From: Acidobacteriota bacterium
GTDB lineage: Bacteria; Acidobacteriota; UBA890
Length of the DNA: 64,000 bases
Direction: 5' to 3'
Assembly (NCBI GenBank): GCA_965214245.1
Contig: CBDCBL010000009.1
Location: forward strand, 961,422-1,025,421
The notes beneath the pieces were generated by a model. It did no database searches and had not been told where the DNA came from. It saw only the letters and a program-made list of their open reading frames with translations. Shown here one piece after another: positions 2,355-17,323 of the stretch. Each line of letters begins with the position of its first letter. The first letter of the stretch is position 1. Position numbers and translations under genes: made by a program.

Positions 2355-3424
2355 ATGCTCCAAAGCGTCAATCGACGGTGCGGCGACTGCCGGACGCTGC
2401 TCGCCTCGCTGTTCGTCGCCGTGGTCGTCACTGCCGGTGCGTGCGACCGATCCGACCCCGGCGGCGTCGACGCCGCTGCCGCCGGCCTGCCGAGCGAGGT
2501 TTCCGTCAACTCCGGCCGGGGCAGCCAATACATCCAAGCGGCGGCGGTGGCGGCCATCGTTGAAAAGCACACGCCGATGAAAGGGTTCGCCGAGCCCACA
2601 CGGTCGCACGTCGCCGCCATGCCGCTGTTCCAGGAGAAGAAGCTCGATTTCATCTTCGTCAGCCAATCGGAGACCTACCTGGCCAATCGCGGCGAGGAGT
2701 ACTACGCGACGGTAGGGCCGACGCCGATCCGCGTGGTCGCGGCGGGCACGGAGATCATGTTCAGCTTCTTCACTCGTCCCGACAGCGGCATCACGAGTAT
2801 CGAGGAGCTGGCGGGCCGCAAGGTCATATGGGACACGCAGGCGGTGGGGGTCTTCTACTGGGCTGCGAAGTACGTCCTCGGCTGCTACGACCTCGAAGAC
2901 AAGGTGATCTCGATCCCGTCGCCGGCACCGATCGACCGCGCCGAAGCCCTGACGACGGGGAGCGTCGACGCCTACGCCTGCTCGACCCAGTTCCAGGCGA
3001 TGGAGGCGATCTACAGCTCGGTCGGCATGAGAATGATCGATATCCCGAGAGCATGCGCCGAACGCGTCCATGAGCTCTACCCGGCGTTGTACCCCGCAGT
3101 ATGCCCGCGCGCGGGTTCAACGGCGGCATGGTGTGAGCCGCGACGTGCCCGTGTTGGCGGCGAGCACGGCGCTGCAGGCCCGCGTCGATCTCGAGGATGA
3201 AGTGGTCTACGCCGTGCTCGAGGCGATCTACGATCATTTCGACGAGTTCGCCCGGGGCCCACCCGTCGCTGGAGTCGATGAGCCTCGACAGGGCGGTGTC
3301 GCTCGACTCGATCAACCCCTACCACATGGGTGCCATCCGCTTTTTCGAGGACAGGGGCATGTGGACAGCGGCCGCAAGCCGCATGCAGGAGCGGTTGCTG
3401 CGGGAGCTCGGAGCGACGAGATGA
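2355..3424 (+). pseudogene. TAXI-family TRAP transporter solute-binding protein. The reading frame is broken three times (near 3100, 3134 and 3255). This could be real pseudogenisation or indel sequencing errors.
   Basis: There is an N-terminal lipoprotein-like signal ('LFVAVVVTAGAC'). TAXI-like segments continue in three different frames: 'MPARGFNGGMV', then 'SRDVPVLAASTALQARVDLEDEVVYAVLEAIYDHFDEF', then 'HPSLESMSLDRAVSLDSINPYHMGAIRFFEDRGMW', which is the typical TAXI C-terminus. The shifts coincide with G/C runs such as 'gcccggggccc'. Confidence 0.55.
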
Positions 3425-3474
3425 CCCCGGGGCAGACCCGGGCTGACGAGATGACCCCGGGGCAGATCCGGGCT
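3415..3474. repeat. Two tandem copies of a 30-bp unit, GACGAGATGACCCCGGGGCAGA(C/T)CCGGGCT. Each copy contains an in-frame ATG and the palindromes CCCCGGGG and CCCGGG.
   Basis: Direct reading of the sequence: 3415-3444 and 3445-3474 differ at one position. Translated, this gives a duplicated 'DEMTPGQ(T/I)RA' at the TAXI / permease junction. Confidence 0.8.
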
Positions 3475-5784
3475 CAGGATGGGGCACCCGATCCCGCGCC
3501 CCCGCCGCGCGCCACCAAGATCTTCATCGTCGCTTTCTTCACCTACGAGCTGCTGTATCTCGTCGGTGCGTTCTCGACCCGTTACTTCTTCCTGTTGAGC
3601 GAGAGCCACCGCGCCATCTCGCTGAGCCTGATCATCATTCTGACCTTGTTGATGAAGCGCGGGCGCGCCGATCGCCAAGGACCGCCCGCCGCCGGCGGCA
3701 CCGCCGAGCGATCCGTTCCCTGGTACGACTACGCTCTCATGATCGCCGGCTGCGCCGGCTGCTTCTACATCGCCCCGACGTCGAAGATCGTCGAGCTGCA
3801 GCTCGCTTCTCCGGTAATCGAGCCGCTTGAGCTCACTCTCGGGATCGTCACGATCGCCGTGCTGCTGGAGGGAACGCGTCGCGTCGCGGGCCCGGTGCTG
3901 CCGGTCGTTCTCGTCGCCGCCCTGCTCTATGCGCTGTTCGCCAACCAGTTTCCGGGCCTGCTGTACGGTCGGGCCCACTCGTTCCCCCGCGTTATCGGCG
4001 AGGTGTACCTGTCGCTCGACGGCATCTTCGGCAACGTCATGCGGCTGTGGACCCGAATCCTGGTCGTGTTCCTGCTGTTCGGCGGTTTTCTGCACGCCTC
4101 CGGGGCGGGGCGCTTTTTCATCGAGCTGGCGCTGGCGTTGGCCGGACACCTGAGGGGCGGCCCGGCCAAGGTGGCGACGATCGCCAGCGGGCTGTTCGGC
4201 ACCGTGAGCGGCAGCGCCGCCGCCGACGTCGCCACAACCGGCGTCATCACGATTCCGATGATGAAGAGGCTCGGCTATCCGCCGGAGTTCGCGGGCGCCG
4301 TCGAGGCGGTCGCCTCGACCGGAGGCGTGTTGATGCCGCCCATGATGGGGATGGTGGCGTTCATGGTCGCCGAGTACCTCGACATGCCGTACATCGAGGT
4401 CTGCATCGCCGCGGCGCTGCCGGCGCTGTTGTACTACGGCAGCCTCTACTTGCTGGTCGACCTGGAATCCCGCAGGCTCGACCTCAGGGGCATTCCGCCC
4501 TCTGAGCTGCCTTCCCTGACCAAAACACTGAAGGAGGGTTGGTTCTTTTTCATTCCCCTCCTGGTGGTGGTGTACGCGCTGGCGGTGCTGCGGTACCCGC
4601 CCGGCCTGTGCGCCATCTACGGCCTCGTGGCACTGGTCGTCGTGACCAGCTTCAAGCGGGAGACGCGTTTCACCGCCGCTCGCACGATGGAGGCTTTCAT
4701 GCTCGCGGCACGCAGCTCATTGGTCGTGGCCATCATCTGCGGCTCGGTGGGCATCCTGATCGCCAGCGTCACCATGACCGGCGCCACCTTGCGGATGGGC
4801 GTGCTGCTGGTCGAAAGCAGTGGCGACAGCCTATTGGCGCTGCTCCTTCTAGCGGGCGTCGCCTCGCTCCTGCTCGGCACCGGTGTGCCGGCGATCGCCT
4901 CCTACCCGTTGCTGGCCGTCACCGTGGCCCCAGCCATCACGTCTCTCGGGGTTCCGCCGATCGCCGCCCACTTGTTCGTGCTCTATTGGGGCGTCAGCCA
5001 TTTGATCACCCCGCCGGTCGGCGGCACGCTCTACATCGCGGCATCGTTCTCCGGTGTCGGCATCTGGAGACAGGGGGCGCACGCCATGCGGCTGGGGATT
5101 GCCCTGTTCCTGGTGCCGTTCATCTTCTGCTACCACCCCGAGCTTCTGTTCGTCGGCGAGCTGCCACAGACGGCAATCCAGTTCGTGCTGGCGGCGCTGG
5201 CGATGGTCAGCGTCGCGGGCAGCTTCAGCGGGTCGCTGGAGGCGCTCTCGAGCCCCGTGTCGCGCGCCGGGTTGCTCGGCATGGCGGCAGGCTTGATCGT
5301 GCAAGGCACGATGGGGCTGTTCATCGGATTTGGAGCGCTCGGCGCCGTCGTCGCCGGCGTCCTCTTGCGTAGCGCCCGCTATCATTCGTCGAGCCCCCCG
5401 AGTCGCGAAAGGATCCGCGCTATTGAAGATCGACGTGTTCAGCCATATCCTGCCGCCCCGCTACTTGAAGGAGCGCAATGCCAAGGCGGCGTTCGGGGGC
5501 AGCCAGTACGCCCGCTACTACCGCGCCAATCCCGCCCTGACCGATCTCGAGCTCCGCTTCCGCGTGATGGACAAGTTCCCGGACGTCGTGCAAATTCTGA
5601 CCATCGCCGGGCCGAACGTCGAGAGCATCACCGAGCCTCGCGACTCCATCGAGCTCGCCGCGATCGCCAACGACGAGCTCGCGGAGCTGGTCGGCGCCCA
5701 CCCCGACCGCTTCGCCACCGCGGCGGCCTGCCTGCCGATGAACGACGTCGACGCGGCGCTGCGCGAGGCGGAACGGGCGATTGA
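3421..5784 (+). CDS. TRAP transporter fused permease (DctQ-DctM type 4TM/12TM fusion) partnering the TAXI binding protein. The true 3' end is uncertain: the last ~120 codons overlap the next gene and look non-native.
   Basis: About 650 aa of polytopic membrane protein with many hydrophobic helices ('IFIVAFFTYELLYLVGAF', 'LLVVVYALAVL' and others) directly downstream of the TAXI gene. The Arg-rich tail after 'GVLLRSARY' is an out-of-frame read through the amidohydrolase gene. A stop was probably lost or shifted near 5400. Confidence 0.65.
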   Translation: MTPGQTRADEMTPGQIRAQDGAPDPAPPPRATKIFIVAFFTYELLYLVGAFSTRYFFLLSESHRAISLSLIIILTLLMKRGRADRQGPPAAGGTAERSVPWYDYALMIAGCAGCFYIAPTSKIVELQLASPVIEPLELTLGIVTIAVLLEGTRRVAGPVLPVVLVAALLYALFANQFPGLLYGRAHSFPRVIGEVYLSLDGIFGNVMRLWTRILVVFLLFGGFLHASGAGRFFIELALALAGHLRGGPAKVATIASGLFGTVSGSAAADVATTGVITIPMMKRLGYPPEFAGAVEAVASTGGVLMPPMMGMVAFMVAEYLDMPYIEVCIAAALPALLYYGSLYLLVDLESRRLDLRGIPPSELPSLTKTLKEGWFFFIPLLVVVYALAVLRYPPGLCAIYGLVALVVVTSFKRETRFTAARTMEAFMLAARSSLVVAIICGSVGILIASVTMTGATLRMGVLLVESSGDSLLALLLLAGVASLLLGTGVPAIASYPLLAVTVAPAITSLGVPPIAAHLFVLYWGVSHLITPPVGGTLYIAASFSGVGIWRQGAHAMRLGIALFLVPFIFCYHPELLFVGELPQTAIQFVLAALAMVSVAGSFSGSLEALSSPVSRAGLLGMAAGLIVQGTMGLFIGFGALGAVVAGVLLRSARYHSSSPPSRERIRAIEDRRVQPYPAAPLLEGAQCQGGVRGQPVRPLLPRQSRPDRSRAPLPRDGQVPGRRANSDHRRAERREHHRASRLHRARRDRQRRARGAGRRPPRPLRHRGGLPADERRRRGAARGGTGD

Positions 5785-6427
5785 CGAGCTCGGGTTCCGG
5801 GGCGTGGAAATCTTCACGGACATCAACGGCAAGCCGCTGGACGCCCCCGACTTCTATCCCCTGTACGCGCGCATGGTGGAGTACGACCTCCCCATCCTGC
5901 TCCATCCCCGGCGCACCAACACGACGCCCGACTACGACGACGAGGCGACCTCTCGCTTCCTGATCTACACGAACTTCGGCTGGCCTTTCGAGACATCGAA
6001 GGCGATGGCGCGGCTGGCGTTCGGCGGCATCTTCGAGCGGTTTCCAACGCTCAAGATCATCACCCATCACGCCGGCGGCCTGATTCCCTACTTCGCCAAG
6101 CGCGTCGAGCTTTCGTGGGACTTCAACGAGACCCTGATGGGCTATCAACGCGATGGGCAGCCGGGCAGCATACCGCCGCTCGACGCCTATCGAATGTTCT
6201 ACTGTGACACCGCCATTCAGGGGAACACGCCGGCGTTGATGTGCGCCTACGACTTCTTCGGCGCCGATCACATGGTCTTCGCCACGGATTCGCCCTACGA
6301 CAGCCGCTTCGGGGAGCGCGTCTACCTGGAAACCGTGCCGGCGGTCGAGGCGATGCCGATCCCCGACGCCGAGAAGGAAAAGATCTTTCACGGCAACGCA
6401 CGACGACTGTTTCGTCTCCCCGGCTAG
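5423..6427 (+). CDS. Amidohydrolase_2 family metal-dependent hydrolase or decarboxylase (ACMSD / LigW / LigI-like).
   Basis: The protein begins '(L)KIDVFSHILPPRYL', a typical start for this family. His/Asp metal-ligand positions are conserved ('HHAGGLIPY', 'FATDSPY'). The proposed start is the TTG at 5423; the longer ORF from 5330 is Arg-rich and overlaps the permease. Confidence 0.75.
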   Translation: MKIDVFSHILPPRYLKERNAKAAFGGSQYARYYRANPALTDLELRFRVMDKFPDVVQILTIAGPNVESITEPRDSIELAAIANDELAELVGAHPDRFATAAACLPMNDVDAALREAERAIDELGFRGVEIFTDINGKPLDAPDFYPLYARMVEYDLPILLHPRRTNTTPDYDDEATSRFLIYTNFGWPFETSKAMARLAFGGIFERFPTLKIITHHAGGLIPYFAKRVELSWDFNETLMGYQRDGQPGSIPPLDAYRMFYCDTAIQGNTPALMCAYDFFGADHMVFATDSPYDSRFGERVYLETVPAVEAMPIPDAEKEKIFHGNARRLFRLPG

Positions 6428-6489
6428 CCGTGTCCGGTTTCAACTCTGCGGACCTTCACGCTTATGGTCAGGGCGCAGCGAGGTGCCTA

Positions 6490-6519
6490 TTGACGCGGTC
6501 AAAGACGCTCTCGTAGTCT
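6490..6519 (+). promoter_or_regulatory. Candidate sigma70-like promoter: TTGACG, an 18-bp spacer, then TAGTCT. It lies upstream of the gene at 6551, which has a GGAG ribosome-binding site 8 nt before its ATG.
   Basis: Hexamers read directly in the 123-bp intergenic region. No experimental support. Confidence 0.25.
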
Positions 6520-6550
6520 TCAGCCGAACCGACTTGATGGAGCACACAAT

Positions 6551-7981
6551 ATGCGCGTTATGAGGATCGAACGAATCGCCGCGACCGGAGCCCCGCTGCT
6601 TGCCCTCGTGGCTGCCGTTCTCATGCAGCCCGTCCCCGCAGCCGCCCAACAGGGTGCGTCGGATGAAGTGACTTTCACCCGAGACATCGCACCGATCCTG
6701 CAGCGCAGCTGTCAGAGATGCCACAACCCCCGCGGTATCGCTCCGATGCCGCTCATCGAATACGAGGACGTACGCCCCTATGCCCGGCAGATCATGCTGC
6801 GGACCGGCATCCGTGACTCCGCCGGAACGATGCCACCGTGGTACATCGAGAAGAACATCGGAATCCAATACTACAAGGACGACCCGTCGCTCAGCGATGC
6901 AGAGGTCGCCACCATCGTGGCCTGGGTGCGCGCCGATACTCCGCGTGGCAATCCGGAGGATATGCCACCACCCCGCGTTTGGGATGACCGGGCCGGATGG
7001 ACCGCCGGCGAGCCGGATCTGATCCTCGTACTCCCCGAGACCACGGTCGCGGCCGATGCACCGGATTGGTGGGGCGACATCGAAAGCGTGCCGACCGGAC
7101 TTAAAGAAGACCGGTACGTGGCCTCGGTGGAGATCAGGGAGATCAACGACGTTCCCAACCGCAACACTGAGGGCCGCAACACGGTAGGCGGACGTTACGT
7201 CGTCCACCATATGATCTGGAGCACCCGTATTCTCGAGGACGGGGAGGACACCAGCGCCGGTTCGGGTGGTGGGAGCGACAGCGTCAGCTGGCCGGTTCAC
7301 GAGGTCGGTCGCAACCCCGATATCTTCGACCCGGAGGGCGGCCGGCTCCTCAAGGCAGGCTCGAGCTTCGTGTCGAACTCTGTGCACCTGCACTCGAACG
7401 GCCGCGACACCAAGGCGCATCTGGAGATCGGCTTCCGCTTCCATCCGGTGGGCTACGAACCGAAGTACACGCGCTTTTTCTTCGGCCTCGGTAACAGCGT
7501 CGACATCGACATCAAGGCGATGGAGAAGGACCAGGAGCTCCACGCCTATGCGGTGCTCGATCAACCCACCAAGATCGTTACCTTCGAGCCCCACCTGCAC
7601 GCGCCCGGATCGCGAATGTGCTTGGAGGCGATCTGGGGCTTCAACGTCGAAACCCTGGCGTGCGTCGGCTATGACCACAACTGGGTAAGAGGCTACACCT
7701 TCGCGGATGATTACCAGCCGCTGCTGCCCAAGGGCACGGTCCTCCATATCATCGGCTACATGGACAACTCTCCCGAGAACACGATGGTCCCTGACCCGCG
7801 CAACTGGCAAGGATCGGGCAATCGGTCGGTGGCCAACATGTTCATCGATCTGGGGATGAGGCTCTCGATGACCGACGAGCAGTTCCAGCAGGAAATGGCC
7901 GAGCGACGAGAGCGGCTCGAGCTGACGGTGAACGACCATGTCATCGGCTGTCCGCTGTGCATGGTCATCCCGGGAAGGTAG
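6551..7981 (+). CDS. Secreted two-domain protein: an N-terminal mono-heme cytochrome c domain followed by a ~350-aa domain whose His/Met motifs resemble a type-II copper monooxygenase (peptidylglycine / dopamine-beta monooxygenase-like). The second assignment is tentative.
   Basis: There is a signal peptide, then 'DIAPILQRSCQRCHNP', which contains CxxCH in the context typical of planctomycete-type cytochrome c domains. Downstream motifs are 'VVHHMIW' (HHM), 'VHLHSNG' (HxHxxG) and 'HLHAPGSRM' with a Met about 70 aa after the HxH. This spacing is reminiscent of the CuH and CuM sites of the eukaryotic enzymes. Confidence 0.6.
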   Translation: MRVMRIERIAATGAPLLALVAAVLMQPVPAAAQQGASDEVTFTRDIAPILQRSCQRCHNPRGIAPMPLIEYEDVRPYARQIMLRTGIRDSAGTMPPWYIEKNIGIQYYKDDPSLSDAEVATIVAWVRADTPRGNPEDMPPPRVWDDRAGWTAGEPDLILVLPETTVAADAPDWWGDIESVPTGLKEDRYVASVEIREINDVPNRNTEGRNTVGGRYVVHHMIWSTRILEDGEDTSAGSGGGSDSVSWPVHEVGRNPDIFDPEGGRLLKAGSSFVSNSVHLHSNGRDTKAHLEIGFRFHPVGYEPKYTRFFFGLGNSVDIDIKAMEKDQELHAYAVLDQPTKIVTFEPHLHAPGSRMCLEAIWGFNVETLACVGYDHNWVRGYTFADDYQPLLPKGTVLHIIGYMDNSPENTMVPDPRNWQGSGNRSVANMFIDLGMRLSMTDEQFQQEMAERRERLELTVNDHVIGCPLCMVIPGR

Positions 7982-7985
7982 CCCG

Positions 7986-8998
7986 ATGAAGGGACGACCT
8001 GTTCGGTGGCGGCGGAGCGCCGCAGTCGTACGCGCCATGCTCGTCGCGCTGGCGCTGTCGCTGACCCATCAGGGAGGGGAGCCAACGCCCAGCTCTCGTA
8101 TACCAAGGGGCAGAACGTCTCGCCGGCGTTCGAGGGGTGGGAGCAAAATCCCGAAGGGTCTTTCAGCCTGGTGTTCGGCTACATGAACCGGAACTGGCTG
8201 GAGGAGCTCGATGTCCCGGTGGGGCCCGACAACAACATCTCTCCCGGGCCCGCCGAGCAGCGACAGCCCACCCACTTCCTGCCGCGACGCAACCGGTTTG
8301 TCTTCAAGGTCCGGGTGCCTACGGATTTCGGTGATCAGGAGATGGTCTGGACGCTCGCGACTCGGGGAAAGACCGAGTATGCGTACGGATCGCTGCGGCC
8401 CGACTACATCATCGACGATGTGGTCATCGCGTCCGAGACCGGAGCGCTCGGTGCCGGATCGAGTAGCCCGGAGTCGCGGGCCAACGTTGCCCCGGTCGTT
8501 ACGGTTCTCGGCGACGAAGTCCGAAGGACCATGGTGGGTCAGCCGCTGACCCTGGTCGCAACCGTCGCCGATGACGGGCTCCCGAGAGTCCGTCGCCGCT
8601 CCACTCCACCTGCGGAGGAGCCACCTTCGGAGGAGCCACCTGCGGAGGGGGCACCTGCGGAGGAGCCACCGAAACTGACCGCCCGACAGCTCCGTCCTCC
8701 GACGCGGATCACGGTGAACAAGCGGCTGGGGCTGCACCTGTCTTGGTTCGTCTTCCGCGGCGCCGGCGAGGTCAGCTTCGATCCGCCGCAGGTGAAGGTT
8801 TGGGAGGATACCCGGACCGGGGCGAATTCACCGTGGGCGCCGCTCTGGGCGCCACCGGAAGTCCCCGAGGATGGGCGCTGGGAGGTTGGCGTCACCTTCG
8901 ATCAGGCGGGAACCTACGTCCTTCGCGCGCGCGCCGATGATGGAGGTCTGTACCACGACGCGGACGTCACGATCCACGTCGCGGCTGCCAGCCGCTGA
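7986..8998 (+). CDS. Secreted hypothetical protein with a PAEEPP-type low-complexity linker. There is an apparent frameshift near 8075-8090 between the signal peptide and the body.
   Basis: The ATG at 7986 lies 4 nt after the upstream stop and encodes the signal peptide 'MKGRPVRWRRSAAVVRAMLVALALSL'. The body continues in another frame from about 8085 ('AQLSYTKGQNVSPAFEGW...'). The shift sits at a 'cagggaggggagcc' G-run. Confidence 0.45.
8606..8670 (+). repeat. Imperfect tandem ~18-bp repeats (CCACCTGCGGAGGAGCCA-like) that encode the PPAEEPPSEEPPAEGAPAEEPP linker.
   Basis: Direct reading of the sequence. Confidence 0.7.
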
Positions 8999-9000
8999 TA

Positions 9001-9231
9001 ATGTGGAAGTTCGTTGTCGGCTCGCTGCTGATCGTCGTGAGCCTCATCTTTTTCTACGAGGCCTGGACGTACTGGGACCAGCTCACGACGTGGGCGAGCT
9101 TCCTCGTCGGTGCCGCCAGCGGCGGTTGCCTGGCTGCCGGCCTCCTTGTCTTGCTATGGCGCCCAAGCCATCCCGCCACCCGTTATAAGGCCGAACTTCC
9201 GTCCCCGTGGGACCGGAACCGCTGGCGTTGA
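9001..9231 (+). CDS. Small (76 aa) membrane protein with two predicted transmembrane helices.
   Basis: Its ATG lies 2 nt after the upstream stop. Hydrophobic helices are 'FVVGSLLIVVSLIFFY' and 'WASFLVGAASGGCLAAGLLVLLW'. No homolog recognised. Confidence 0.4.
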   Translation: MWKFVVGSLLIVVSLIFFYEAWTYWDQLTTWASFLVGAASGGCLAAGLLVLLWRPSHPATRYKAELPSPWDRNRWR

Positions 9232-9323
9232 GTACCGCGAGGTTCAAAGAATCGTTGCTCGATTCTTGTCGCCCCGCTTGCGGGCGAGTACATTGACGCA
9301 ATCTTAGCTCTGGGAGGAAGAAG

Positions 9324-11384
9324 ATGAGAGCAGACCTGACACGCCGTCCGCGACGAATCCACGTCGTGCTTTGTTTCGCCTTGTCTCTGAGCGTCGGTCT
9401 CGCGGTTTCGCCACTGTCCGTGGGCCAGGAGCGTGGCAACCCTGTGGGCGAGTGGCGCTACCAAAGCGCCGACGCCTCGGGCACCCGCTACTCGCCTCTC
9501 GACCAGATCAACGGCGAGAATTTCGAGGATCTGGGGATCGCCTGGCTCTGGCGCGGCGACAACTTCAGCCCCGAGCCGCAGACAACCTCGCGCTCGACCC
9601 CCAGCTATATCGACGGAAGGCTCTACACAGTGGCCGGGTCGCGCCGCACGGTCGTGGCGATGAACCCCGCCACGGGCGAGACCATCTGGACGTACCGCGA
9701 GCCCAACACCCAGCGCTGGGAACGTTCCATGCGCGCCAGCTACGGCAAGGGCGTGGGCTACGGCGAGGTGGATGGCAACGGCGTCATTTACATCTCCACC
9801 CCCGGCTTTTTCCTCCACGCCCTGGATGCGCGGACCGGACGCCCCTTGGAGAACTGGGGTTCGACGGTACCGGTGGAGGGTTTTTCCACGACCGGAGTGG
9901 TGGACCTCCTGCCCGACCTGCTCACCGGCTGGGGCCCGTGGGAGGCGTACGAGGGCACGTATGATCCCGACTACGGGATCCCGCGAGAGCTCGGCTACAT
10001 CACCAGCTCATCGCCCCCGATCGTCGTCAACGGCACGGTGGTCGTCGGCAGCTCTGCCGAGCAAGGCTACAACCAGACTCGCATCGAGAACGTCCCGAAC
10101 GACATCCTGGCGTACGACGCCAAGACAGGCGAGTTCCGCTGGAAGTTCCACGTCATCCCGCGGCCCGGCGAGGTCGGCCACGAAACCTGGGAAAACGACG
10201 CCTGGAGATACACGGGAGACATTTCCTCCTGGGCCCCGCTGTCCGCCGACAACGAACGCGGCATCGTTTACGTTCCCACCAACCCACCGACCATCGATTA
10301 CTTCGGCGGCTTCCGCCCGGGCGCCAACTTGTTCGGCACCAGCGTCATCGCGCTCGACGTTTCAACGGGCGAGCGAGTGTGGCACTTCCAGACGGTCCAC
10401 AACGACCAGTGGAACTACGACCTTCCCAACGTACCGATCGTGGTGGACCTGACGGTTGACGGGGAGGAAATTCCCGCCGTCGTGCAAACCACCAAGCAGG
10501 GGTTTATCTTCGCGTTCAACCGAGAAACAGGTGTACCGATTTGGCCCATCGAGGAGCGCCCCGTGCCGGAATCGAACGTGCCCGGGAACTGGACGTCGGC
10601 CAACCAGCCCTACCCGACGAAGCCCGAGCCCTTCGAGTCCTTCGGCCTCGGCGACGACCGCGTCATCGACTTCACCCCCGAGCTCAAAGCAGAGGCCCTC
10701 GAGATCTTGTCCGAGTACCGGATCGGCGACCCCTACATGCCGCGGCTGTATACCGGCCACGACTCCGGTGTGCGCGACAACCTCCGCTGCTACGGCGGGC
10801 TGAACATCACGCATCCCGCCGCCATGGACCCGACAACGGGAATCCTGTACGTGTCGCACTCCATGGGGTGCAGCGGCGGCTCCGTGATGCCCGGCGCCGA
10901 GAAAGACGAACCCGACGACCCGGGCACCACCGGCTCGACAATCTCCGAGTGGGTCGCGGGCCCGAACGGACGCCTGCCCACGGTCCGCGGCCTACCGATC
11001 TTCAAACCGCCGTACAACGAGGCGTCCGCTTACGACATGAACACCGGCGAGCGACTCTACTCGGTGCCGATCGGCAAGCCCGCAGCGGTGCTCAAGAACC
11101 GTGCCGCCGAGATGGGCATCGACCTGTCCGAGGCGGGCGGTGGGCCCCATGCCATCCTGATGGTCACCGGCAGCGTGTTGCTCACCAGCGAGGTTCTCGC
11201 CGATAACCGCCCGGTCCTCACTGCCCGCGACAAAGCGACCGGTGAGCGCTTGGGCTCGGTCGAGCTACCGGCGCCGGCCCAGTACGGCATGATGACGTAT
11301 CTGCACGACGGACGGCAGTACATCGTGGTGCAGATCGGCGGTCGGGACTATCCGAGCTCGCTCGTGGCACTTGCCCTCCAGTGA
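9324..11384 (+). CDS. PQQ-dependent dehydrogenase (8-bladed quinoprotein) with a signal peptide; substrate unknown.
   Basis: The N-terminus 'GEWRYQSADASGTRYSPLDQINGENFEDLGIAWLWRG' is the canonical quinoprotein start. W-containing propeller repeats recur throughout. There is no adjacent Cys-Cys pair and no N-terminal transmembrane anchor. A GGGAGGAAG ribosome-binding site sits upstream. Confidence 0.85.
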   Translation: MRADLTRRPRRIHVVLCFALSLSVGLAVSPLSVGQERGNPVGEWRYQSADASGTRYSPLDQINGENFEDLGIAWLWRGDNFSPEPQTTSRSTPSYIDGRLYTVAGSRRTVVAMNPATGETIWTYREPNTQRWERSMRASYGKGVGYGEVDGNGVIYISTPGFFLHALDARTGRPLENWGSTVPVEGFSTTGVVDLLPDLLTGWGPWEAYEGTYDPDYGIPRELGYITSSSPPIVVNGTVVVGSSAEQGYNQTRIENVPNDILAYDAKTGEFRWKFHVIPRPGEVGHETWENDAWRYTGDISSWAPLSADNERGIVYVPTNPPTIDYFGGFRPGANLFGTSVIALDVSTGERVWHFQTVHNDQWNYDLPNVPIVVDLTVDGEEIPAVVQTTKQGFIFAFNRETGVPIWPIEERPVPESNVPGNWTSANQPYPTKPEPFESFGLGDDRVIDFTPELKAEALEILSEYRIGDPYMPRLYTGHDSGVRDNLRCYGGLNITHPAAMDPTTGILYVSHSMGCSGGSVMPGAEKDEPDDPGTTGSTISEWVAGPNGRLPTVRGLPIFKPPYNEASAYDMNTGERLYSVPIGKPAAVLKNRAAEMGIDLSEAGGGPHAILMVTGSVLLTSEVLADNRPVLTARDKATGERLGSVELPAPAQYGMMTYLHDGRQYIVVQIGGRDYPSSLVALALQ

Positions 11385-11470
11385 CCGTCGCGCGACAGCG
11401 AGAGCAGGCTGGGGCGACGCCGGCAAGTCGCAACCGTCGCTCACGGGGAACGACCCGATAGGAGAGTCTG

Positions 11471-12746
11471 ATGCGCACAGACAGCAGGTGGTCCAAACTC
11501 ACGACGTTAGGCGCAGTTCTGGTGGCCGTGGCGGTCGCGGGCTGTGCATCGCAGGGGACCGGGTCGGGGGGCGCGAGCAGTGAAAAGGCGCCTCCGATAC
11601 AGGGCGAGCGAGGGGCAGGAGCTCTTCGGCCATTACCAGAGACCGGAGCCTTTCCCCAGGCCCTTGCCAGACGATCTCCACTCGCACGACGGGTGGACTT
11701 GGGGGTCCGTGGGGGCGGTATTCGCTGAGAGCTCGGACCGGATCTGGATCGCGCAGCGCGGCGAGCTACCGCTGGCGGAGGGCGCCGACCCGTGGACACC
11801 CTACAGTCTGTTGAATCCCTCCAGGGGCAACGCGCCCGCCACGACCGACGGGATCAGCTCCACGTGTCGGGAGACGGGGAACCTGCGCGGTTACGAGAGG
11901 CGATTTTTCCATGTCATCTTCGTCGTCGACAGCGATGGCAATCTGGTTGACGAATGGCCGCAGCACGATGGGCTCTTCGGGGCGCAGCCCTGCGGGCGTG
12001 GGCCGCACAAGATCAAGATCAGCCCGTACGATCCCGACAAGCACGTTTGGGTCATCGACGACCAGCTGCACGTGATCTACAAATTCACCCAAGAGGGGGA
12101 GTTGGTGCACACGCTGGGTGAGTTGGGAGCGCAAGGACGCAGCCCCAACAACTTTGACCGTCCGACGGACATCGCCTGGCTTCCCGACGGGACATACTTC
12201 ATCAGTGATGGGTACGGAGGCACCCGGGTCGCGAAGTTCGACACCGACAACAACTTCATCATGGACTGGGGGGGACCCCCCGCCGATCCGGCCAACCCCG
12301 GCCCGAACGAGTTCAACACCGTCCACAGCATCGCAATCAGCGCCGACAGGAGAGTCTACGTCGTCGATCGCGCCCACGCTCGGATCCAGATATTCGACGA
12401 GAACGGCACCTTCCTGGACATGTTCTCGACAGGCCCCCGAGCCGCATCCCGACCGTACGCCCACGAGATCCTCCGTGATATGGAGACCGGAGAAGAGTTC
12501 ATCTGGGTCTCGGACGGTGGAACCCATCGAATCCTGAAATACGATCTGGATGGAAACTTCCTCTACAGCTGGGGCCGGCGGAGCGGGCAACGCGGCCAGT
12601 TCAACGGCCCACACTCGCTCACCGTCGATCCGGACGGGAACCTGTACACGGCGGAGGTGTTTGCCGGCCGCGTCCAGAAGTTCGTCCCGCGACTGAACGC
12701 CGACGCCGCGAAGCTGGCGGGGCATCAGCTGCGCGAATGGGACTGA
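11471..12746 (+). CDS. NHL-repeat (6-bladed beta-propeller) lipoprotein. There is an apparent frameshift near 11567-11590.
   Basis: The lipoprotein signal 'LVAVAVAGCAS' is in one frame. The NHL repeats ('RPTDIAWLPDGTYFISDGYGG', 'FNTVHSIAISADRRVYVVDRAHARIQIFDENG', 'FNGPHSLTVDPDGNLYTAEV') are in the frame of ORF 11544-12746. The shift falls at the run 'tcggggggcg'. Confidence 0.65.
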
Positions 12747-12759
12747 ACGAGAGACCACG

Positions 12760-12831
12760 GGAAACCTCCCCCATGCCGCCAGCGCCGAGCTGCTCGATGA
12801 TCTTGTAGGGGCCGAGGGAGGTGCCGATCAT
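12760..12831 (-). pseudogene. Truncated N-terminal stub of a second Ser/Thr kinase gene.
   Basis: It encodes 'MIGTSLGPYKIIEQLGAGGMGEV' and then degenerates, overlapping the 3' end of the NHL gene. About 49 bp match the 5' end of the intact kinase at 15439-15487 at roughly 42 of 49 positions. Confidence 0.45.
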
Positions 12832-13913
12832 CCAGAGCCGTCCGCCGGCACCCGCTGCTTCAACTCCTCGAACCAGTTGACGACGACGGTGAGCAGAACG
12901 GGCGCGCGGTTCATGTTCTCGACCATCAGGAAGCGATCGGTGCCAGGGTCGTAGTCGTACAACGTGCGGTAGCCTACGCCCGTGTTGAAGGTAGCAACCG
13001 AAAAGAGTGCTTCCCTCTCCACTCCGAAAACAGGCTCAGTTTCCAAGTGGGCAACCATCATCCGTTGATCCTGGATGTAGAAGAGCTCTGTTTCGTCGGG
13101 GCCCCACATCGGAGAATGGCCGCCAGCGTTGGAAACAGTGCTCCTGCTGTCAAAGCTGGGGAAGGGGCGAACGTACACCTCGTTGAGCCCCGTTGCCCGA
13201 GTTCCCCCCGTGGGGGAAACATAGGCCAACCAGCGACCATCGGGTGAGACCATCGGCGTTTGCTGGTTGAACTGGCCGTCGGGGTCCAGCGGATAAGACA
13301 CGGTCTGGTCTCCGTCCATCGAGATCATGCCGATTCTGCGCTGCTGCGTGGCATCGATCTGCTCGTGTGACAGGAGCTGCGTGCCTTTATTTGCCCAGGA
13401 GATCGGGAAAGCGTTGCCGCTCGTTCGCCAAAGCTCCTGGGGCTCGCTGCTGAAATCGGCATCGCTCCAATAGATCGCCCCACCGGAGGTGAACAGTACT
13501 TTCTCTCCGTCCAGCGTCCAGAGCGGCGCGGTGCCGCGGGCCAGTGGATTCCACGCGCCACCCTCGACGTCGTAGAGCCAGATTCCGCCAGACTCCACTG
13601 CGATCTGTCTGCCGTCGGGCGACAAGCGAACAGCACCGAGGTTGCGCTCACCCTCGAAAACGCTCGTGAAGTTTCCTTGCCGATCGACCCAGACGATCCG
13701 TTGGCGGCCTGGGCCAGGTCGCCGCCGCCGGACGGTACACAAGGTGGCCCTCCTCCGAGAACGTGTACCACGCCATGCCGTTGCCCGGCAGCATGCGAAC
13801 GCCCTGCTCCATGCGCACCGGGGGGCCCAGCACTTCGAGCCGCTCTGGGTCGAAGGGCACGGCCTCGAGCGTGCCTCCCGGCCGGGCGTAGACGACGTGC
13901 CCCGTTGTTGCAT
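12828..13913 (-). CDS. TolB-like / WD40-like beta-propeller domain. It is probably the C-terminal part of the kinase gene at 13648-15513, separated from it by a frameshift near 13720-13750.
   Basis: Repeats such as 'SPDGRQIAVESGGIWLYDVEGG', 'GMISMDGDQTVSYPLDPDG' and 'MVSPDGRWLAYVSPTGG' are typical of TolB-type propellers found on bacterial Ser/Thr kinases. It overlaps the kinase ORF out of frame. The first ~60 codons of this ORF look non-native. Confidence 0.6.
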   Translation of the reverse strand: MQQRGTSSTPGREARSRPCPSTQSGSKCWAPRCAWSRAFACCRATAWRGTRSRRRATLCTVRRRRPGPGRQRIVWVDRQGNFTSVFEGERNLGAVRLSPDGRQIAVESGGIWLYDVEGGAWNPLARGTAPLWTLDGEKVLFTSGGAIYWSDADFSSEPQELWRTSGNAFPISWANKGTQLLSHEQIDATQQRRIGMISMDGDQTVSYPLDPDGQFNQQTPMVSPDGRWLAYVSPTGGTRATGLNEVYVRPFPSFDSRSTVSNAGGHSPMWGPDETELFYIQDQRMMVAHLETEPVFGVEREALFSVATFNTGVGYRTLYDYDPGTDRFLMVENMNRAPVLLTVVVNWFEELKQRVPADGSG

Positions 13914-15513
13914 ACATCGGATCCGTACCCTGCTCGGCGACGATCGTTAGTTTGCCAGTGTCGAGTGAGACGACCCAGATGCCAGCGGTCGCGACGTCCG
14001 CCGTATCGCCCCAACCCTCCACAAGGACGCCTCTGCCGCCCGGCAAGAAATGTGGGCGGCCGTACCTGGCGATTCCTGCCTGGGCATCCCGTTCGGCGAC
14101 CAGGAAACGCTCGCCGCCGTTCTCGGAGATCCTCCAGAGGGAAAAGTCTTGGACGAAGATGATCTCGTCATCGGCCCACGTAGCTTCGCCCGGAGCGTCG
14201 TGAATGTTGAGAGGCGTCCCACTCGAAATCGGGATCTTCCAGAGGCCCTCCCCCGTTGAGTACCCGAGCCACTGGCTGTCGGGCGAGAAGAAGGAGCGGT
14301 CCTGCGTTATCCCGCTGTCCGGGACACCGGCGATCAGAGCAGATCCCTCTTGGTCGTTTGACTTATGGTAGATCTTGACACCGTCGACGCCGGCCACGCC
14401 CCACACGAGGTGCCGGCCGTCGGGTGATAGAAGCGGAGCAATCACAGCTCCAGCGGACGCCGGGATGCTGATGCTGAGTCGCTGCAATAGCCGCGGCTCC
14501 GACATGGGCGACCTGGCGGCGTTCCAAACCAACAAGCTTGCGATGGCCGCCACGACGACTACCGCCGCTGCGGCCAGGCTCAACCGAATCCGGCGCGGCC
14601 CGAGGACGACGGACGGGCCCGAGTCCCCTTCGGCGCTACCCAGTGGCACCGCCGAGCCCGAATCCTCGAGCTCAATCCTCGCATCGGCAATGTCGTGCAC
14701 GCGGCGGTCGGGATCCTTCCGCAGGCATCGCTCGATGAGCGCGCGCACCAAAGGCGGGGCCGCTGCAGGTAGCGCCCCCCAATTCGGGTCGGCCTCGAGG
14801 ATGGCAGCGAGCGTGTCGGCAACGGTCTCTCTATCGAACGCCCGCCGTCCAACCAAGGCTTCATAGAGAACACAACCGAACGCCCAGATGTCGGCCCGCT
14901 TGTCGAGCGCCTTGCCGCGCACTTGCTCGGGGCTCATGTAGGGGGCGGTGCCGAGGGTCACCCCTGTTTGCGTGCCCGCCATGGTCAGCGTCGGCGAGTG
15001 GCTCATGTCGGTTTCGCGTGGAGCGGCCTCGACCGTCTTCGCCAAGCCGAAATCGAGTACCTTAGCCTTCCCCTTCGGACTGATCAGGATATTCGCCGGC
15101 TTCAGATCCCGATGGATGATGCCCTCACCGTGGGCCGCCTCGAGAGCCTCGGCGATCTGCTTGCAGAGGTCCAGCGCCTCCTCGACCGGCATGGGCCCCC
15201 GGGAAAGCCGCCTCTCGAGAGACTCACCCTCGACGAGCTCGAGCACGAGAAAGCGGATACCGTCCGCTTCCTCGAGGCTGTGGATGGTGGCGATGTTGGC
15301 ATGGTTTAGGGCCGCCAGCAGGTGGGCTTCACGTTCCAGTCTGGCGAGACGATCCGGATCGGCGTTGAGCTCCTCGGGCAGGATCTTGATCGCCACCTCG
15401 CGCTTCAGCGTCGAATCCCGAGCCCGATACACCTCACCCATACCGCCAGCGCCTAGCTGCTCGATGATCTTGTAGTTACCGAGGTAGCGTAAGGAAAAAG
15501 GGCGTTTCTTCAC
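13648..15513 (-). CDS. Hanks-type Ser/Thr protein kinase with a transmembrane segment and the start of a periplasmic beta-propeller.
   Basis: Kinase motifs are present: 'LGAGGMGEVYRA' (Gly loop), 'VAIK', 'HRDLKPANILI', 'DFGLAK', 'APEQ'. A hydrophobic segment 'LAAAAVVVVAAIASLLVW' follows the kinase domain. The C-terminal ~25 aa are Arg-rich and look like they come after a frameshift. Confidence 0.85.
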   Translation of the reverse strand: MKKRPFSLRYLGNYKIIEQLGAGGMGEVYRARDSTLKREVAIKILPEELNADPDRLARLEREAHLLAALNHANIATIHSLEEADGIRFLVLELVEGESLERRLSRGPMPVEEALDLCKQIAEALEAAHGEGIIHRDLKPANILISPKGKAKVLDFGLAKTVEAAPRETDMSHSPTLTMAGTQTGVTLGTAPYMSPEQVRGKALDKRADIWAFGCVLYEALVGRRAFDRETVADTLAAILEADPNWGALPAAAPPLVRALIERCLRKDPDRRVHDIADARIELEDSGSAVPLGSAEGDSGPSVVLGPRRIRLSLAAAAVVVVAAIASLLVWNAARSPMSEPRLLQRLSISIPASAGAVIAPLLSPDGRHLVWGVAGVDGVKIYHKSNDQEGSALIAGVPDSGITQDRSFFSPDSQWLGYSTGEGLWKIPISSGTPLNIHDAPGEATWADDEIIFVQDFSLWRISENGGERFLVAERDAQAGIARYGRPHFLPGGRGVLVEGWGDTADVATAGIWVVSLDTGKLTIVAEQGTDPMYATTGHVVYARPGGTLEAVPFDPERLEVLGPPVRMEQGVRMLPGNGMAWYTFSEEGHLVYRPAAATWPRPPTDRLGRSARKLHERFRG

Positions 15514-15737: not shown

Positions 15738-15802
15738 AATCGGTGCTGACAAGAGGTTGTTGGAGCCAGCGGAGCGGAGCGCCGGTGCAACAACATCGCC
15801 TG

Positions 15803-16807
15803 TCAACGCGGTGAGACGGTGGACGCGTAATTAGTGAGCAAGGGTGGCAGGCTTGTTGATCCAGACGGCGGTGGGGAGTTGACGAAGCGCTCAGGCCGGG
15901 CCCGGTAGGCGGCCAGCAGGACTTCGGCACGCCGGTCGCGGGTCTGCTGGGCGAGTCCGTCCTGCACCGTCGCCGGAGTCATCAGGCCGATGCCCGAGTG
16001 GCGATGCTGGTAGTTGTACCAGTGGAAGAATGCCCGGCAGAAGAGACGGGCGTGTTCGATCGACTCGAAGCGAGCAGGGAACTCGGGTCGGTACTTGAGC
16101 GTCCTGAAGTGGGCCTCGGAGTAGGGATTGTCCGACGAGGTGTAGGGCCTCGAGTGTGTCTTGGTGACCCCGAGATCGGCGAGCAGGAAGGCGACCGGCT
16201 TGGAGGTCATCGAGCTGCCGCGGTCAGCGTGGATGGTGAGCTGATCAGGTCCGATGCGTTGCTGGAGCAGCGCCTGGTCGATGAGCTGCTCGGCCAAGGG
16301 ACCGCTCTCGCGGTGCTGGAGAGTCCAGCCCACCACGTAGCGGCTGAACACGTCGAGGATGACGTACAGGTAGAAGTAGGTCCACTTGGCAGGGCCTCGC
16401 AGTTTGGATATGTCCCACGACCACACCTCGTTGACTCGCTTGGCGAGCAGCTCGGGCTTGTTGTAGGGCGGGTGCACGAGCTGGTTGCGCCGCTCGCCGC
16501 CCTCGCCCTGGGCGGCGAGGATCCGGTACATCGTGCGCTCCGATGCCAGGTAGCGGCCTTCGTCCAGCAGCGTCGCCCATACCTGGGCAGGAGCGCAGTC
16601 GACGAACCGCTCGCTGTGCAACTCGGCGAGAACCTTCTGACGTTCGGGCTCCGACAGCGCCCTCGCCGGCTTGGGCCGCGGTCTGCTCGGTCGGGGCGCA
16701 GGCGGCCGGCGGCGGCGGTAGATCGTCGCGTGCGAGGCGCCCAGCGTCCGGCACGCCGGGCGAGTCCCGATGATGGGAGTGAGTTGTTCGACGGTTTGCT
16801 CGATCAT
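15803..16807 (-). CDS. IS3-family transposase OrfB (DDE / rve integrase core) of IS-A.
   Basis: 'VWSWDISKL...YLYVILDVFSRYVVGW...IHADRGSSMTS...HSRPYTSSDNPYSEAHFRTLKYR' contains the D, D(35)E integrase-core residues. Confidence 0.85.
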   Translation of the reverse strand: MIEQTVEQLTPIIGTRPACRTLGASHATIYRRRRPPAPRPSRPRPKPARALSEPERQKVLAELHSERFVDCAPAQVWATLLDEGRYLASERTMYRILAAQGEGGERRNQLVHPPYNKPELLAKRVNEVWSWDISKLRGPAKWTYFYLYVILDVFSRYVVGWTLQHRESGPLAEQLIDQALLQQRIGPDQLTIHADRGSSMTSKPVAFLLADLGVTKTHSRPYTSSDNPYSEAHFRTLKYRPEFPARFESIEHARLFCRAFFHWYNYQHRHSGIGLMTPATVQDGLAQQTRDRRAEVLLAAYRARPERFVNSPPPSGSTSLPPLLTNYASTVSPR

Positions 16808-17295
16808 CGCTTGGTAGTCGCGTTGGCGCCCCTGGGCTCGAGCAGCTCTCCCAGAAGCGCGGAGACGTTTCCCTGCACCTCGATTACTCGCCGTGCTTTC
16901 TCGAGCTCCGCCTCGGCCCGCTCGGCTCGGCGACGCAGGTTGGCAAGCTGCGCGTCTCGGGGATCGGGCGCCGGCCGGCCGCGTGGCTTAGCCAGCGCCA
17001 CCAATGCCCCGGCGTCACGCTGCTTGCGCCACACCGACAGATGCGACGAGTACAGCCCCTCGCGCCGCAGCAGCGCGCCGACCTCGCCGGGCTTCGAGCA
17101 CCCGTCCGCCTCGCGTACCACCCGGACCTTGTACTCGGCGGTGAACTTGCGGCGCCGTGGTCGCTCGACCAACTGGGGGTCGGGGGCCGGGACCGCGGGC
17201 TCGCGCGACGTCCGCTTTCGGTCGCCTCCGGCTCCCTGCACCGGACGTCCGGTGGCCTCGTGGTCTCCTGCACCGTTGTTGCTCAACTCCGACAT
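16804..17295 (-). CDS. IS3-family transposase OrfA (helix-turn-helix) of IS-A.
   Basis: HTH/leucine-zipper OrfA-like sequence ('RRKFTAEYKVRVVRE...'). It overlaps orfB by 4 nt, which is typical of the OrfAB frameshift arrangement. Confidence 0.75.
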   Translation of the reverse strand: MSELSNNGAGDHEATGRPVQGAGGDRKRTSREPAVPAPDPQLVERPRRRKFTAEYKVRVVREADGCSKPGEVGALLRREGLYSSHLSVWRKQRDAGALVALAKPRGRPAPDPRDAQLANLRRRAERAEAELEKARRVIEVQGNVSALLGELLEPRGANATTKR

Positions 17296-17323
17296 TCTTG
17301 TGTCTCCGACCTCGCCCTCTTGC

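Follow-up and report, generated by a model that had tools for sequence, protein, structure and literature searches.

Organization of the locus

The window, a 64,000-nucleotide stretch of DNA from an Acidobacteriota bacterium, carries on its forward strand five co-directional open reading frames (ORFs), all of them present where the original prediction had placed them. The first, g1 (positions 6551 to 7981), encodes a predicted 476-aa secreted protein in which a c-type cytochrome is fused to a dicopper monooxygenase-like core of the kind found in peptidylglycine alpha-hydroxylating monooxygenase (PHM) and dopamine beta-monooxygenase (DBM). It is followed by g2 (7986 to 8998, with its ORF at 8006 to 8998), initially listed as a secreted unknown and described below as a conserved partner protein lying in two frames; by a 76-aa ORF with two hydrophobic helices (9001 to 9231), recognized by ORF calling and lineage specific; by g3 (9324 to 11384), a periplasmic beta-propeller of the PQQ-dependent dehydrogenase family; and by g4 (11471 to 12746, with the NHL ORF at 11544 to 12746), a six-bladed NHL lipoprotein (PF01436, E=3e-16) that resembles peptidylamidoglycolate lyase (PAL) and also lies in two frames. 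Export or membrane signals had been ascribed to all five genes, but those of g2 and g4 are out of frame.

g1 opens with a predicted Sec signal peptide (residues 1 to 32; 6551 to 6646), whose hydrophobic core leads into AAA, with cleavage putatively placed before the following Q. The cytochrome domain spans approximately residues 38 to 135 (6662 to 6955) and the two-lobed beta-sandwich core approximately residues 150 to 455 (6998 to 7915). g3 matches PF01011, an eight-bladed quinoprotein propeller model, over the full length of the model (positions 1 to 595 of 595, E=4.7e-150), and all NCBIfam PQQ dehydrogenase subfamily models scored it below their cutoffs. No CxxCH motif occurs in the g3 sequence; with no cytochrome domain of its own, the enzyme would need an external acceptor.

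An N-terminal cytochrome c domain in g1

For conservation analysis of g1, we used a close set of 120 homologs and a divergent set of 28 relatives at 30 to 68% identity. The mono-heme c domain that had been proposed from the CQRCH motif is borne out: the motif lies at residues 54 to 58 (6710 to 6724), and C54, C57, and H58 are invariant in all 120 close homologs. Conserved APM66 and M94PPW motifs supply candidate axial methionines, and the structure model places three helices in the region (residues 42 to 53, 71 to 85, and 116 to 127), so that the CxxCH motif, axial Met candidate, and helical core of a class I c-type cytochrome are all represented. Every full-length member of the divergent set likewise has a CxxCH motif and a cytochrome domain. 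The Pfam model Cytochrome_CBB3 matched g1 at E=0.002 (18.7 bits) and its relatives at down to 7e-5 and up to 23.3 bits, in each case below the gathering score. The PSCyt1 model (PF07635), suggested in the original prediction, matched neither g1 at E<=0.1 nor the 28 family members at E<=10, a search in which very weak matches may be hidden by HMMER filters.

A candidate PHM/DBM-like copper core

The original prediction had also pointed to a layout of HHM, HxHxxG, and Met motifs resembling that of copper monooxygenases. The motifs exist and all six ligands align with those of PHM; the spacings of ~72 and ~70 aa given for them were wrong. g1 contains HHM at residues 219 to 221 and two HxHxxG motifs, HLHSNG at 279 to 284 and HLHAPG at 348 to 353. 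In PHM (1PHM/1SDW), which shares the order HHM...H...HxHxxG...(S/D)xM, the successive intervals are 64, 70, and 70 aa (HH, H, HxH, M), as opposed to 59, 69, and 80 aa between H219/H220, H279, H348xH350, and M430 in g1. An hhalign comparison of a diverse family alignment with PHM (E=9e-4) paired VVHHM with TVHHM, SVHLH with QVHYG, and PHLHAPG with VHTHHLG. It thereby equated H219/H220 (codons at 7205 to 7210) and H279 (7385 to 7387) with the CuH ligands H107/H108 and H172 of PHM, and H348/H350 (7592 to 7600) with the CuM ligands H242/H244, the ligand identities of PHM being taken from PMC12164859. The last candidate CuM ligand, M430 (7838 to 7840), fell on M314 of PHM (RSVANM430 on TSSDEM314) only in a permissive extended alignment (E=0.025); distant family members carry at this position an S-x-D-E-M motif, as PHM does. 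The nearer methionines M356 and M404 were considered as CuM ligands and rejected because they are not conserved among distant relatives.

Conservation of these residues, which had been proposed as a check, is high. The candidate CuH ligands are kept in 26 to 27 of the 28 divergent members and in all 120 close homologs, and H348, H350, and M430 are kept in 28, 27, and 25 of the 28, respectively, and again in all 120. Such near invariance indicates, at the level of sequence, that the motif pattern is not a chance occurrence.

Structure comparison agrees with the alignment. In a Foldseek search with the g1 model (mean pLDDT 67, moderate confidence), PHM and DBH chains filled ranks 1 to 30 (E of 9e-7 to 6e-5), and the two-domain beta-sandwich core was recovered; structural Z scores were 14 to 16 against PHM/DBH and at most 7.8 against everything else. 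Among domain models, in the proposed hmmscan check, neither Pfam (even at E<=10) nor NCBIfam copper monooxygenase models matched g1 itself; of its relatives, P0329 reached 24.8 bits against PF03712 (Cu2_monoox_C; cutoff, 23 bits), with weaker matches of P0305 to the same model (E=0.15) and of P0323 to PF01082 (E=0.017). These comparisons relate the bacterial g1 to the copper enzymes behind amidated peptide hormones and noradrenaline.

The resemblance has limits. Identity to PHM is ~14%, and g1 is bacterial and predicted to be periplasmic. Against five disulfides in PHM, g1 has one conserved cysteine pair in its core, C357/C371, which we assign as a disulfide. A C-terminal CPLC motif (C467/C470; 7949 to 7960) belongs to the closer subfamily, being invariant in the 120 close homologs and present in 11 of the 28 divergent members. 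Like DBH, tyramine beta-monooxygenase, and MOXD1 (4ZEL), g1 is a multidomain protein with an extra N-terminal domain; DBH, however, has a DOMON and a dimerization domain where g1 has a heme c cytochrome and a separate partner containing a PKD domain. The comparison with DBH-type enzymes gave no sign of a phenylethylamine substrate.

In PHM, N316 and Y318 bind the C-terminal carboxylate/backbone of the substrate. R240 binds its carboxylate (PMC12164859). In the alignment N316, Y318, and R240 are replaced in g1 by I432, L434, and E346, respectively; position 346 is E or Q in 26 of the 28 divergent members, position 432 is variable, and position 434 is L, W, or F. Because this carboxylate clamp is replaced, a peptidylglycine is an unlikely substrate, and the substrate of g1 is probably not a C-terminal glycine. 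With E/Q346 in place of R240, the site would be suited to a substrate that is neutral or positively charged.

g2 is the constant partner of g1

In 130 of 131 loci, the gene that immediately follows g1 is g2. In four distant relatives (P0328, P0381, P0314, and P0335) the two are fused, in either order, with the g2 part matching by blastp at E values of 1e-38 to 1e-50. This synteny and these fusions single out g2 as the obligate partner of g1, rather than either the PQQ or the NHL gene. It consists of an N-terminal domain of no recognizable fold and a C-terminal PKD/Ig-like domain; searches of g2 for Pfam matches, PDB matches, and cofactor motifs found none, and its structure model is poor. The original prediction had overlooked the partnership of g2, along with the frameshifts in g2 and the NHL gene.

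In the present assembly, a tandem duplication of 5 bp (GGGAG GGGAG, 8072 to 8081) splits the g2 signal-peptide frame (7986 to 8071, starting at ATG 7986) from the mature frame (8078 to 8998). The duplication is absent from a 99.7%-identical sister assembly (L163), which encodes the intact protein (P0121). With no in-frame signal peptide on g2, this strain may lack an active g1-g2 module; alternatively, the frameshift may be an assembly error.

The PQQ and NHL neighbors

The original prediction had linked g1 to the PQQ and NHL genes and had let its case depend on that linkage in homologs. The linkage is not conserved across the 162 related loci. The order g1-g2-PQQ-NHL is shared only by a 92% relative (L001) and the sister assembly, the only loci in which a g3 ortholog adjoins the pair; the 76-aa ORF, too, is found only in L001 among the 162 and is also called in the sister assembly. 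In 7 other loci the neighborhood of the pair includes distant PQQ-like genes (28 to 38% identity); as a whole, PQQ-like genes occur nearby in 8 of 162 loci and are not enriched (4 near versus 4 far). Of the 162 loci, 9 have a PAL-like gene within 4.3 kb of the pair and 6 have one within 1.1 kb; these 6 represent four arrangements (L019, L025, L050/L063, and L126/L149) and several PAL subfamilies 27 to 51% identical to one another. Their enrichment in a 1.2-kb zone, a threshold chosen post hoc, has p=0.002 over all loci and p=0.02 over independent arrangements. More than 90% of loci have neither a PAL-like nor a PQQ gene nearby. On this gene-order evidence, the PQQ and NHL genes are lineage-specific neighbors and not conserved parts of the module, and the PAL-like genes that adjoin the pair in a small number of unrelated lineages are no more than suggestive.

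g4 itself is closer to PAL than had been proposed on grounds of a shared propeller fold. In the PDB it matches PAL (3fvz, E=4e-20), with ~30 to 35% identity over part of the protein. Pairwise alignment with the 3FVZ sequence places R72, H155, Y224, H261, R276, and H357 of g4 on R533, H585, Y654, H690, R706, and H786 of PAL. H585, H690, and H786 reportedly form the zinc-binding His triad (attributed to Chufan et al. 2009). The structural calcium site of PAL is formed by the side chain of D787 together with two backbone carbonyls. The suggested check of the metal ligands thus gave a split result: the zinc triad is kept, but D787 is replaced by serine (S358). The catalytic Tyr654/Arg706 dyad, confirmed in PMC10303134, is also kept. 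Some g4 homologs are already named peptidylamidoglycolate lyase by JGI. Unlike PAL as a domain of PAM, g4 is a lipoprotein. One G too many in the run at 11602 to 11604 puts its signal frame (11471 to ~11601, from ATG 11471, with lipobox VAGC) out of register, and one G has to be removed for it to join the NHL frame. The gene is frameshifted in the sister assembly as well; L001 has an intact 424-aa version. In another organism the g4 ortholog sits in an unrelated context, with a g1-like gene beside g2 on a different contig of the same sample.

Other neighbors of the pair recur within single lineages. In Pseudohongiella-type loci it is flanked by genes with CopC domains and by a gene of the SURF1 family, and in 10 acidobacterial loci ACIII-like genes come after it; this is circumstantial support for a connection with copper and respiration. 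No conserved neighbor indicating a substrate was found among the related loci.

Proposed function and alternatives

We consider it reasonably likely that g1 and g2 form a PHM/DBM-type enzyme, a periplasmic, two-subunit, noncoupled binuclear copper monooxygenase in which the fused mono-heme cytochrome c replaces ascorbate as the electron donor. The protein would be exported by Sec and heme attached at CQRCH. The cytochrome domain, which probably supplies the electrons to the copper core, would be reduced by the periplasmic respiratory pool (soluble cytochromes c, bc1, or ACIII) and would pass single electrons to CuH (H219, H220, and H279) and on to CuM (H348, H350, and M430), the ligands being those assigned by alignment. 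By homology, CuM would activate O2 for hydroxylation of a periplasmic substrate at a C-H bond. g2 would be a stoichiometric partner that may be required in substrate binding or presentation, or in assembly. Delivery of electrons from heme to a secreted or periplasmic catalyst has precedents in the cytochrome domain of cellobiose dehydrogenase, which serves lytic polysaccharide monooxygenases (LPMOs), and in quinohemoprotein alcohol dehydrogenases with a fused cytochrome c. As is proposed for g1, a cytochrome domain, either built in or dedicated, donates or accepts single electrons, but the folds and cofactors are unrelated, there is no PHM-type core, and the heme of cellobiose dehydrogenase is of type b and on a separate protein.

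The same neighborhood could be read, in line with the original prediction, as a bacterial PAM-like pathway, in which g1 would add a hydroxyl group to a carbon adjacent to nitrogen, the NHL lipoprotein would cleave the resulting carbinolamide, and the PQQ dehydrogenase would feed electrons to the g1 cytochrome. The PAL-type residues and 3fvz match of g4, the PAL-like genes close to the pair elsewhere, and the lack of a cytochrome in g3 all suit such a pathway. We nevertheless regard it as quite unlikely, given the unenriched PQQ-like genes, the unlinked g4 ortholog, the frameshifts in g4, and the loss of the glycine-carboxylate ligands of PHM. PHM-like and PAL-like genes are not consistently coupled; the latter are enriched near the pair but far from obligate. 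Unlike PHM, g1 is not fused to a PAL domain, and it would need a separate partner protein, g2.

A different possibility is that the PHM scaffold serves only as an electron-transfer and O2-binding unit, and not a C-H hydroxylase, in an oxidoreductase with a respiratory or detoxifying role whose substrate is a small inorganic molecule or O2 itself. In its favor, identity across phyla is unusually high (62 to 75% between Gemmatimonadota, Acidobacteriota, and Gammaproteobacteria), PHM substrate-binding residues are lost and substrate-related neighbors absent, and the pair recurs beside ACIII-like, SURF1-family, and CopC genes. However, each such neighbor is limited to one lineage (10 to 17 of 162 loci), a large non-redox partner such as g2 fits substrate handling better, and every characterized protein with this fold hydroxylates C-H bonds, with O2 reduction tightly coupled (PMC12164859); we judge this reading unlikely. 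Very improbable is that the beta-sandwich is a noncatalytic binding module (a PNGase F- or CBM-like jelly roll) on a cytochrome, with structural or coincidental His and Met residues. The missing Pfam match of g1 would allow it, but relatives reach Cu2_monoox_C, the Z scores single out PHM/DBH, and the six aligned ligand positions are conserved at 30 to 68% identity while neighboring His and Met residues drift.

Distribution and significance

To our knowledge, noncoupled binuclear copper monooxygenases (PHM, DBM, and TBM) are almost all from eukaryotes. They are ascorbate dependent, PHM drawing on soluble ascorbate, and how electrons travel to CuH and then across the ~11 A that separate it from CuM continues to be debated. 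In the searchable literature we found no ascorbate-independent, cytochrome c-fused version, in line with the initial view that the architecture is uncharacterized. The g1 family is a very large, highly conserved bacterial one that combines six PHM-type ligands with a covalent cytochrome c and an obligate partner subunit. The module would be genetically tractable and spectroscopically addressable, and its heme could both inject electrons from within and report on their transfer to CuH and CuM.

It is tempting to see in the pair a bacterial branch of the PHM/DBM enzymes that is widespread and coupled to the respiratory chain, with cytochrome c in place of ascorbate and g2 presenting a periplasmic substrate. 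In some lineages this branch would work with PAL-like lyases in a prokaryotic oxidative N-dealkylation or amidation-type reaction, which would make it the bacterial equivalent of the enzyme that amidates peptides in animals, or even its precursor. We offer this broader picture as a speculation of low probability.

The g1-g2 module occurs in at least 583 species-level genomes from at least four phyla. The g1 core family comprises at least 1653 clusters at 50% identity, and the g2 family has over 6400 at the 90% level. Both are large protein families without annotation in current domain databases, and they point to a possible unrecognized periplasmic oxygenation in bacteria that are abundant in soils and marine waters (Gemmatimonadota, Acidobacteriota, and Pseudohongiella).

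Gene content of the cluster

ORF calling placed five co-directional plus-strand genes between window positions 6551 and 12746. g1 (6551-7981, 476 aa) encodes the fusion of a cytochrome c domain to a core resembling the eukaryotic enzymes PHM and DBH, and g2 (8006-8998 by the ORF call) encodes its conserved partner. These are followed by a 76-aa ORF with two hydrophobic helices (9001-9231), which begins 3 nt past the g2 stop codon, by g3 (9324-11384), a full-length PQQ-dependent dehydrogenase propeller (PF01011, E=4.7e-150), and by g4 (11544-12746), an NHL-repeat protein (Pfam E=3e-16). The sole Pfam match for g1 was to cytochrome c (PF13442, E=0.002) and sub-threshold, the initial Pfam scan returned nothing for g2, and NCBIfam added nothing for either; neither database covers the g1 core or g2. 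The 76-aa membrane ORF was considered as part of the module and rejected for lack of conservation beyond that lineage, being kept only in the closest relatives, L001 (92% identical) and the sister assembly L163 (99.7% identical). A promoter and terminator scan of 6300-13000 was uninformative.

Predicted fold and putative copper ligands of g1

The g1 motifs singled out in the original prediction are real: CQRCH at residues 54-58, HHM at 219-221, and two HxHxxG motifs at 279-284 and 348-353. The ligand spacing proposed from them was wrong, the actual arrangement being HH, 59 aa, H, 69 aa, HxH, 80 aa, M, whereas the corresponding PHM intervals (HH/H/HxH/M) are 64, 70, and 70. Homologues at 62-92% identity fall into more than 6640 90%-identity clusters, nearly all unnamed or labelled "cytochrome c family protein". 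An AlphaFold2 model of g1 built on 49 homologues had a mean pLDDT of 67, with the beta-sandwich region mostly confident. When this model was searched with Foldseek, DBH and PHM chains occupied ranks 1-30 (E 9e-7 to 6e-5, probability 1.00); structural similarity to the copper-monooxygenase fold is thus present, and the fold claim stands. Neither g1 by itself nor a shallow profile of its family turned up anything relevant in sequence searches of the PDB, the sole match being that of the haem motif to hydrazine synthase (E=0.21).

For comparison with PHM, the rat core sequence was validated against 1SDW_A, and the copper ligand sets were those of PMC12164859. Neither an alignment of close g1 homologues (Neff 1.9) nor global-mode hhalign with the g1 family yielded an alignment to PHM; only a diverse alignment succeeded. 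An exhaustive HMMER search with the g1 C-terminal domain recovered, at E<=1e-3, at least 1653 representative clusters, some of them full-length relatives at 30-45% identity. An alignment of 28 diverse family members (A3) matched PHM by hhalign at E=9e-4 with three motifs superposed: VVH219H220M of g1 over TVH107H108M of PHM, SVH279LH over QVH172YG, and PH348LH350APG over VH242TH244HLG. The methionine motif, GNRSVANM430 over GGTSSDEM314, was aligned only in a more permissive run (E=0.025); distant family members carry a literal D-E-M at the M430 position. The putative ligands, H219, H220, and H279 for CuH and H348, H350, and M430 for CuM, are conserved in 26, 27, 27, 28, 27, and 25 of the 28 A3 sequences. 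Five other residues (H250, H331, M356, H376, and M404) are invariant in the close family and drift across A3.

Pfam scanning of divergent members provides what appear to be transitive sequence links to the copper monooxygenases. P0329 exceeds the Cu2_monoox_C cut-off (PF03712, 24.8 versus 23 bits, E=1.7e-5) and P0323 weakly matches PF01082 (E=0.017), although g1 itself matches neither. Every full-length divergent member has a CxxCH cytochrome domain directly N-terminal of the core, and the suggested PSCyt1 family was never matched among the family members scanned. We do not class g1 with the peptidylglycine monooxygenases because, in the alignment, other residues stand where PHM grips the carboxylate of peptidylglycine (E346 for R240, I432 for N316, and L434 for Y318); position 346 is E or Q in 26 of the 28 A3 members. 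Rather, we place g1 in the broader superfamily of non-coupled dicopper monooxygenases, as one of its divergent members.

A separate C-terminal feature of g1, G-C-P-L-C (a CxxC at residues 467-470, window 7949-7960), is invariant in the close subfamily and absent farther out. It may serve in Cu(I) handling or be redox-active.

The g1-g2 pair and its neighbours

We sampled 162 related loci, 80 from genomes, 80 from metagenomes, and two contigs from an exact look-up. Of the 131 loci that extend 1.3 kb or more downstream, 130 have a g2 homologue following g1, and clustering of flanking ORFs across all 162 showed every other gene to be limited to about 10% of loci or fewer. In addition, four distant representatives are Rosetta-stone fusions of g1 and g2 (blastp E 1e-38 to 1e-50 for the g2 part), with the g2-like region N-terminal to the cytochrome-plus-core in P0328 and P0381 and C-terminal to it in P0314 and P0335. 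Because of this adjacency, the fusions, and the lack of any other common neighbour, g1 and g2 are predicted to be one functional unit. The g2 AlphaFold model was poor (pLDDT 53), a g2 profile found nothing in the PDB, and Pfam scanning gave only weak PKD and YtkA-like hints.

The analysis shows a predicted secreted protein that joins a CxxCH domain to a PHM/DBM-type core with all six putative ligand positions and is consistently paired with g2. The mechanism that we favour, with some confidence, is hydroxylation driven by haem c. The haem would take electrons from periplasmic carriers and pass them singly to CuH; CuM would activate O2 and hydroxylate a C-H bond of a probably non-carboxylate substrate; and g2 may bind or present the substrate, or stabilise the enzyme. 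An oxidoreductase role directed at inorganic substrates or O2 itself is unlikely, and a non-catalytic module is highly improbable.

The original prediction went further, having PHM-like g1, PAL-like g4, and the g3 PQQ dehydrogenase act together in one pathway, which we regard as slightly less probable still than the inorganic or O2-directed role. The full window order (TRAP transporter, amidohydrolase, g1, g2, small ORF, PQQ, NHL) occurs elsewhere only in L001 and L163. PQQ-like genes (28-38% identity) accompany the pair in 7 other loci, or 8 of 162 counting L001, with no enrichment around it (four near versus four far), and the proposed PQQ linkage is not supported. The likeness of g4 to PAL, by contrast, extends beyond a shared fold: g4 matches PAL in the PDB (3FVZ, E=4e-20) and, aligned to a validated PAL sequence, keeps R533, H585, Y654, H690, R706, and H786. 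The equivalents of the His residues that form the Zn-binding triad of PAL are thereby retained, but the Ca ligand D787 is changed, the sole such change among the residues aligned. The g4 family comprises at least 2838 clusters, some members being named peptidylamidoglycolate lyase by JGI. The Tyr/Arg dyad of PAL (Y654 and R706), likewise retained in g4, is documented in PMC10303134.

At L019, L025, L050/L063, and L126/L149, a PAL-like gene that retains the majority or the full set of these residues is found no more than 1.1 kb from the pair. These genes stand in four different arrangements and come from different subfamilies, and two further loci have one at greater distance. Relative to the sequence sampled, such genes are enriched in a 1.2-kb zone (p=0.002, or 0.02 with related loci counted once), the threshold being chosen post hoc. 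However, more than 90% of loci have no PAL-like gene near the pair, and P0455, a g4 orthologue, sits amid peptidase genes rather than beside it; in the same sample, the g2 homologue P0145 and an adjoining 475-aa g1-like gene (no Pfam hit) are on another contig. NHL linkage is thus no general feature, and the PHM-PAL pairing is possibly a real association, weak and lineage-dependent, but does not define the system.

Other neighbours are likewise lineage-specific and are consistent with a copper protein connected to the electron pool of periplasmic respiration. Pseudohongiella-type loci, exemplified by L125 (6566-13396), combine the pair with a second, tandem g2 paralogue (9037-9966 and 10263-11219), two CopC-domain genes (11228-11875, minus strand; 12872-13396, plus strand), and a SURF1-family gene immediately upstream. 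In about 10 acidobacterial loci, the pair is followed by genes for an ACIII-like multihaem cytochrome of the c7/c3 type and a molybdopterin-family subunit (L038, 4041-6176; L091, 3030-3611), which hints at a respiratory electron source.

The catalytic scaffold is a known one; what seems new is its fusion to an electron donor, its obligate partner, and its place in the bacterial periplasm. In keeping with the prediction that the architecture is uncharacterised, the full-text literature searched, with incomplete coverage, held no paper on a bacterial cytochrome-c-fused PHM/DBM homologue, which is absence of evidence only.

Upstream of g1 on the plus strand (2355-6427) are a TAXI-type TRAP transporter (NMT1_3 receptor and DctM-family permease) and then an Amidohydro_2 family enzyme, an order found before the pair at no related locus besides L001 and L163.

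Apparent frameshifts and local rearrangements

All five genes had been credited with secretion or membrane signals, but in the window those of g2 and g4 are out of frame. The g2 signal peptide (MKGRPVRWRRSAAVVRAMLVALALSLTHQG, ATG 7986) is separated from mature g2 by a perfect tandem duplication of GGGAG at 8072-8081; L163 lacks the duplication and encodes an intact g2 protein, P0121, and in L001 g2 is split differently. In g4, an extra G in the run at 11602-11604, relative to L001, puts the NHL part in a different frame from the lipoprotein signal (ATG 11471, lipobox VAGC). The sister assembly shares the extra G; in L001, g4 is an intact 424 aa. Either pseudogenisation (for g2, as a strain polymorphism) or assembly error accounts for these breaks; the contigs look like low-coverage long-read assemblies, judging from record names such as ctg586010_6x_l.

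On the minus strand at 12828-15513, the ORF of a Ser/Thr protein kinase (13648-15513) shares ~265 nt, read in another frame, with that of a PD40 beta-propeller (12828-13913), and the two may be a single kinase-propeller gene broken by a further frameshift; L163 also shows an in-frame indel of 18 nt at ~14489. Transposase/integrase (rve-type) ORFs lie at 15800-17900, a segment that matches L163 in rearranged, inverted order, and an IS element has therefore moved or flipped between the assemblies.
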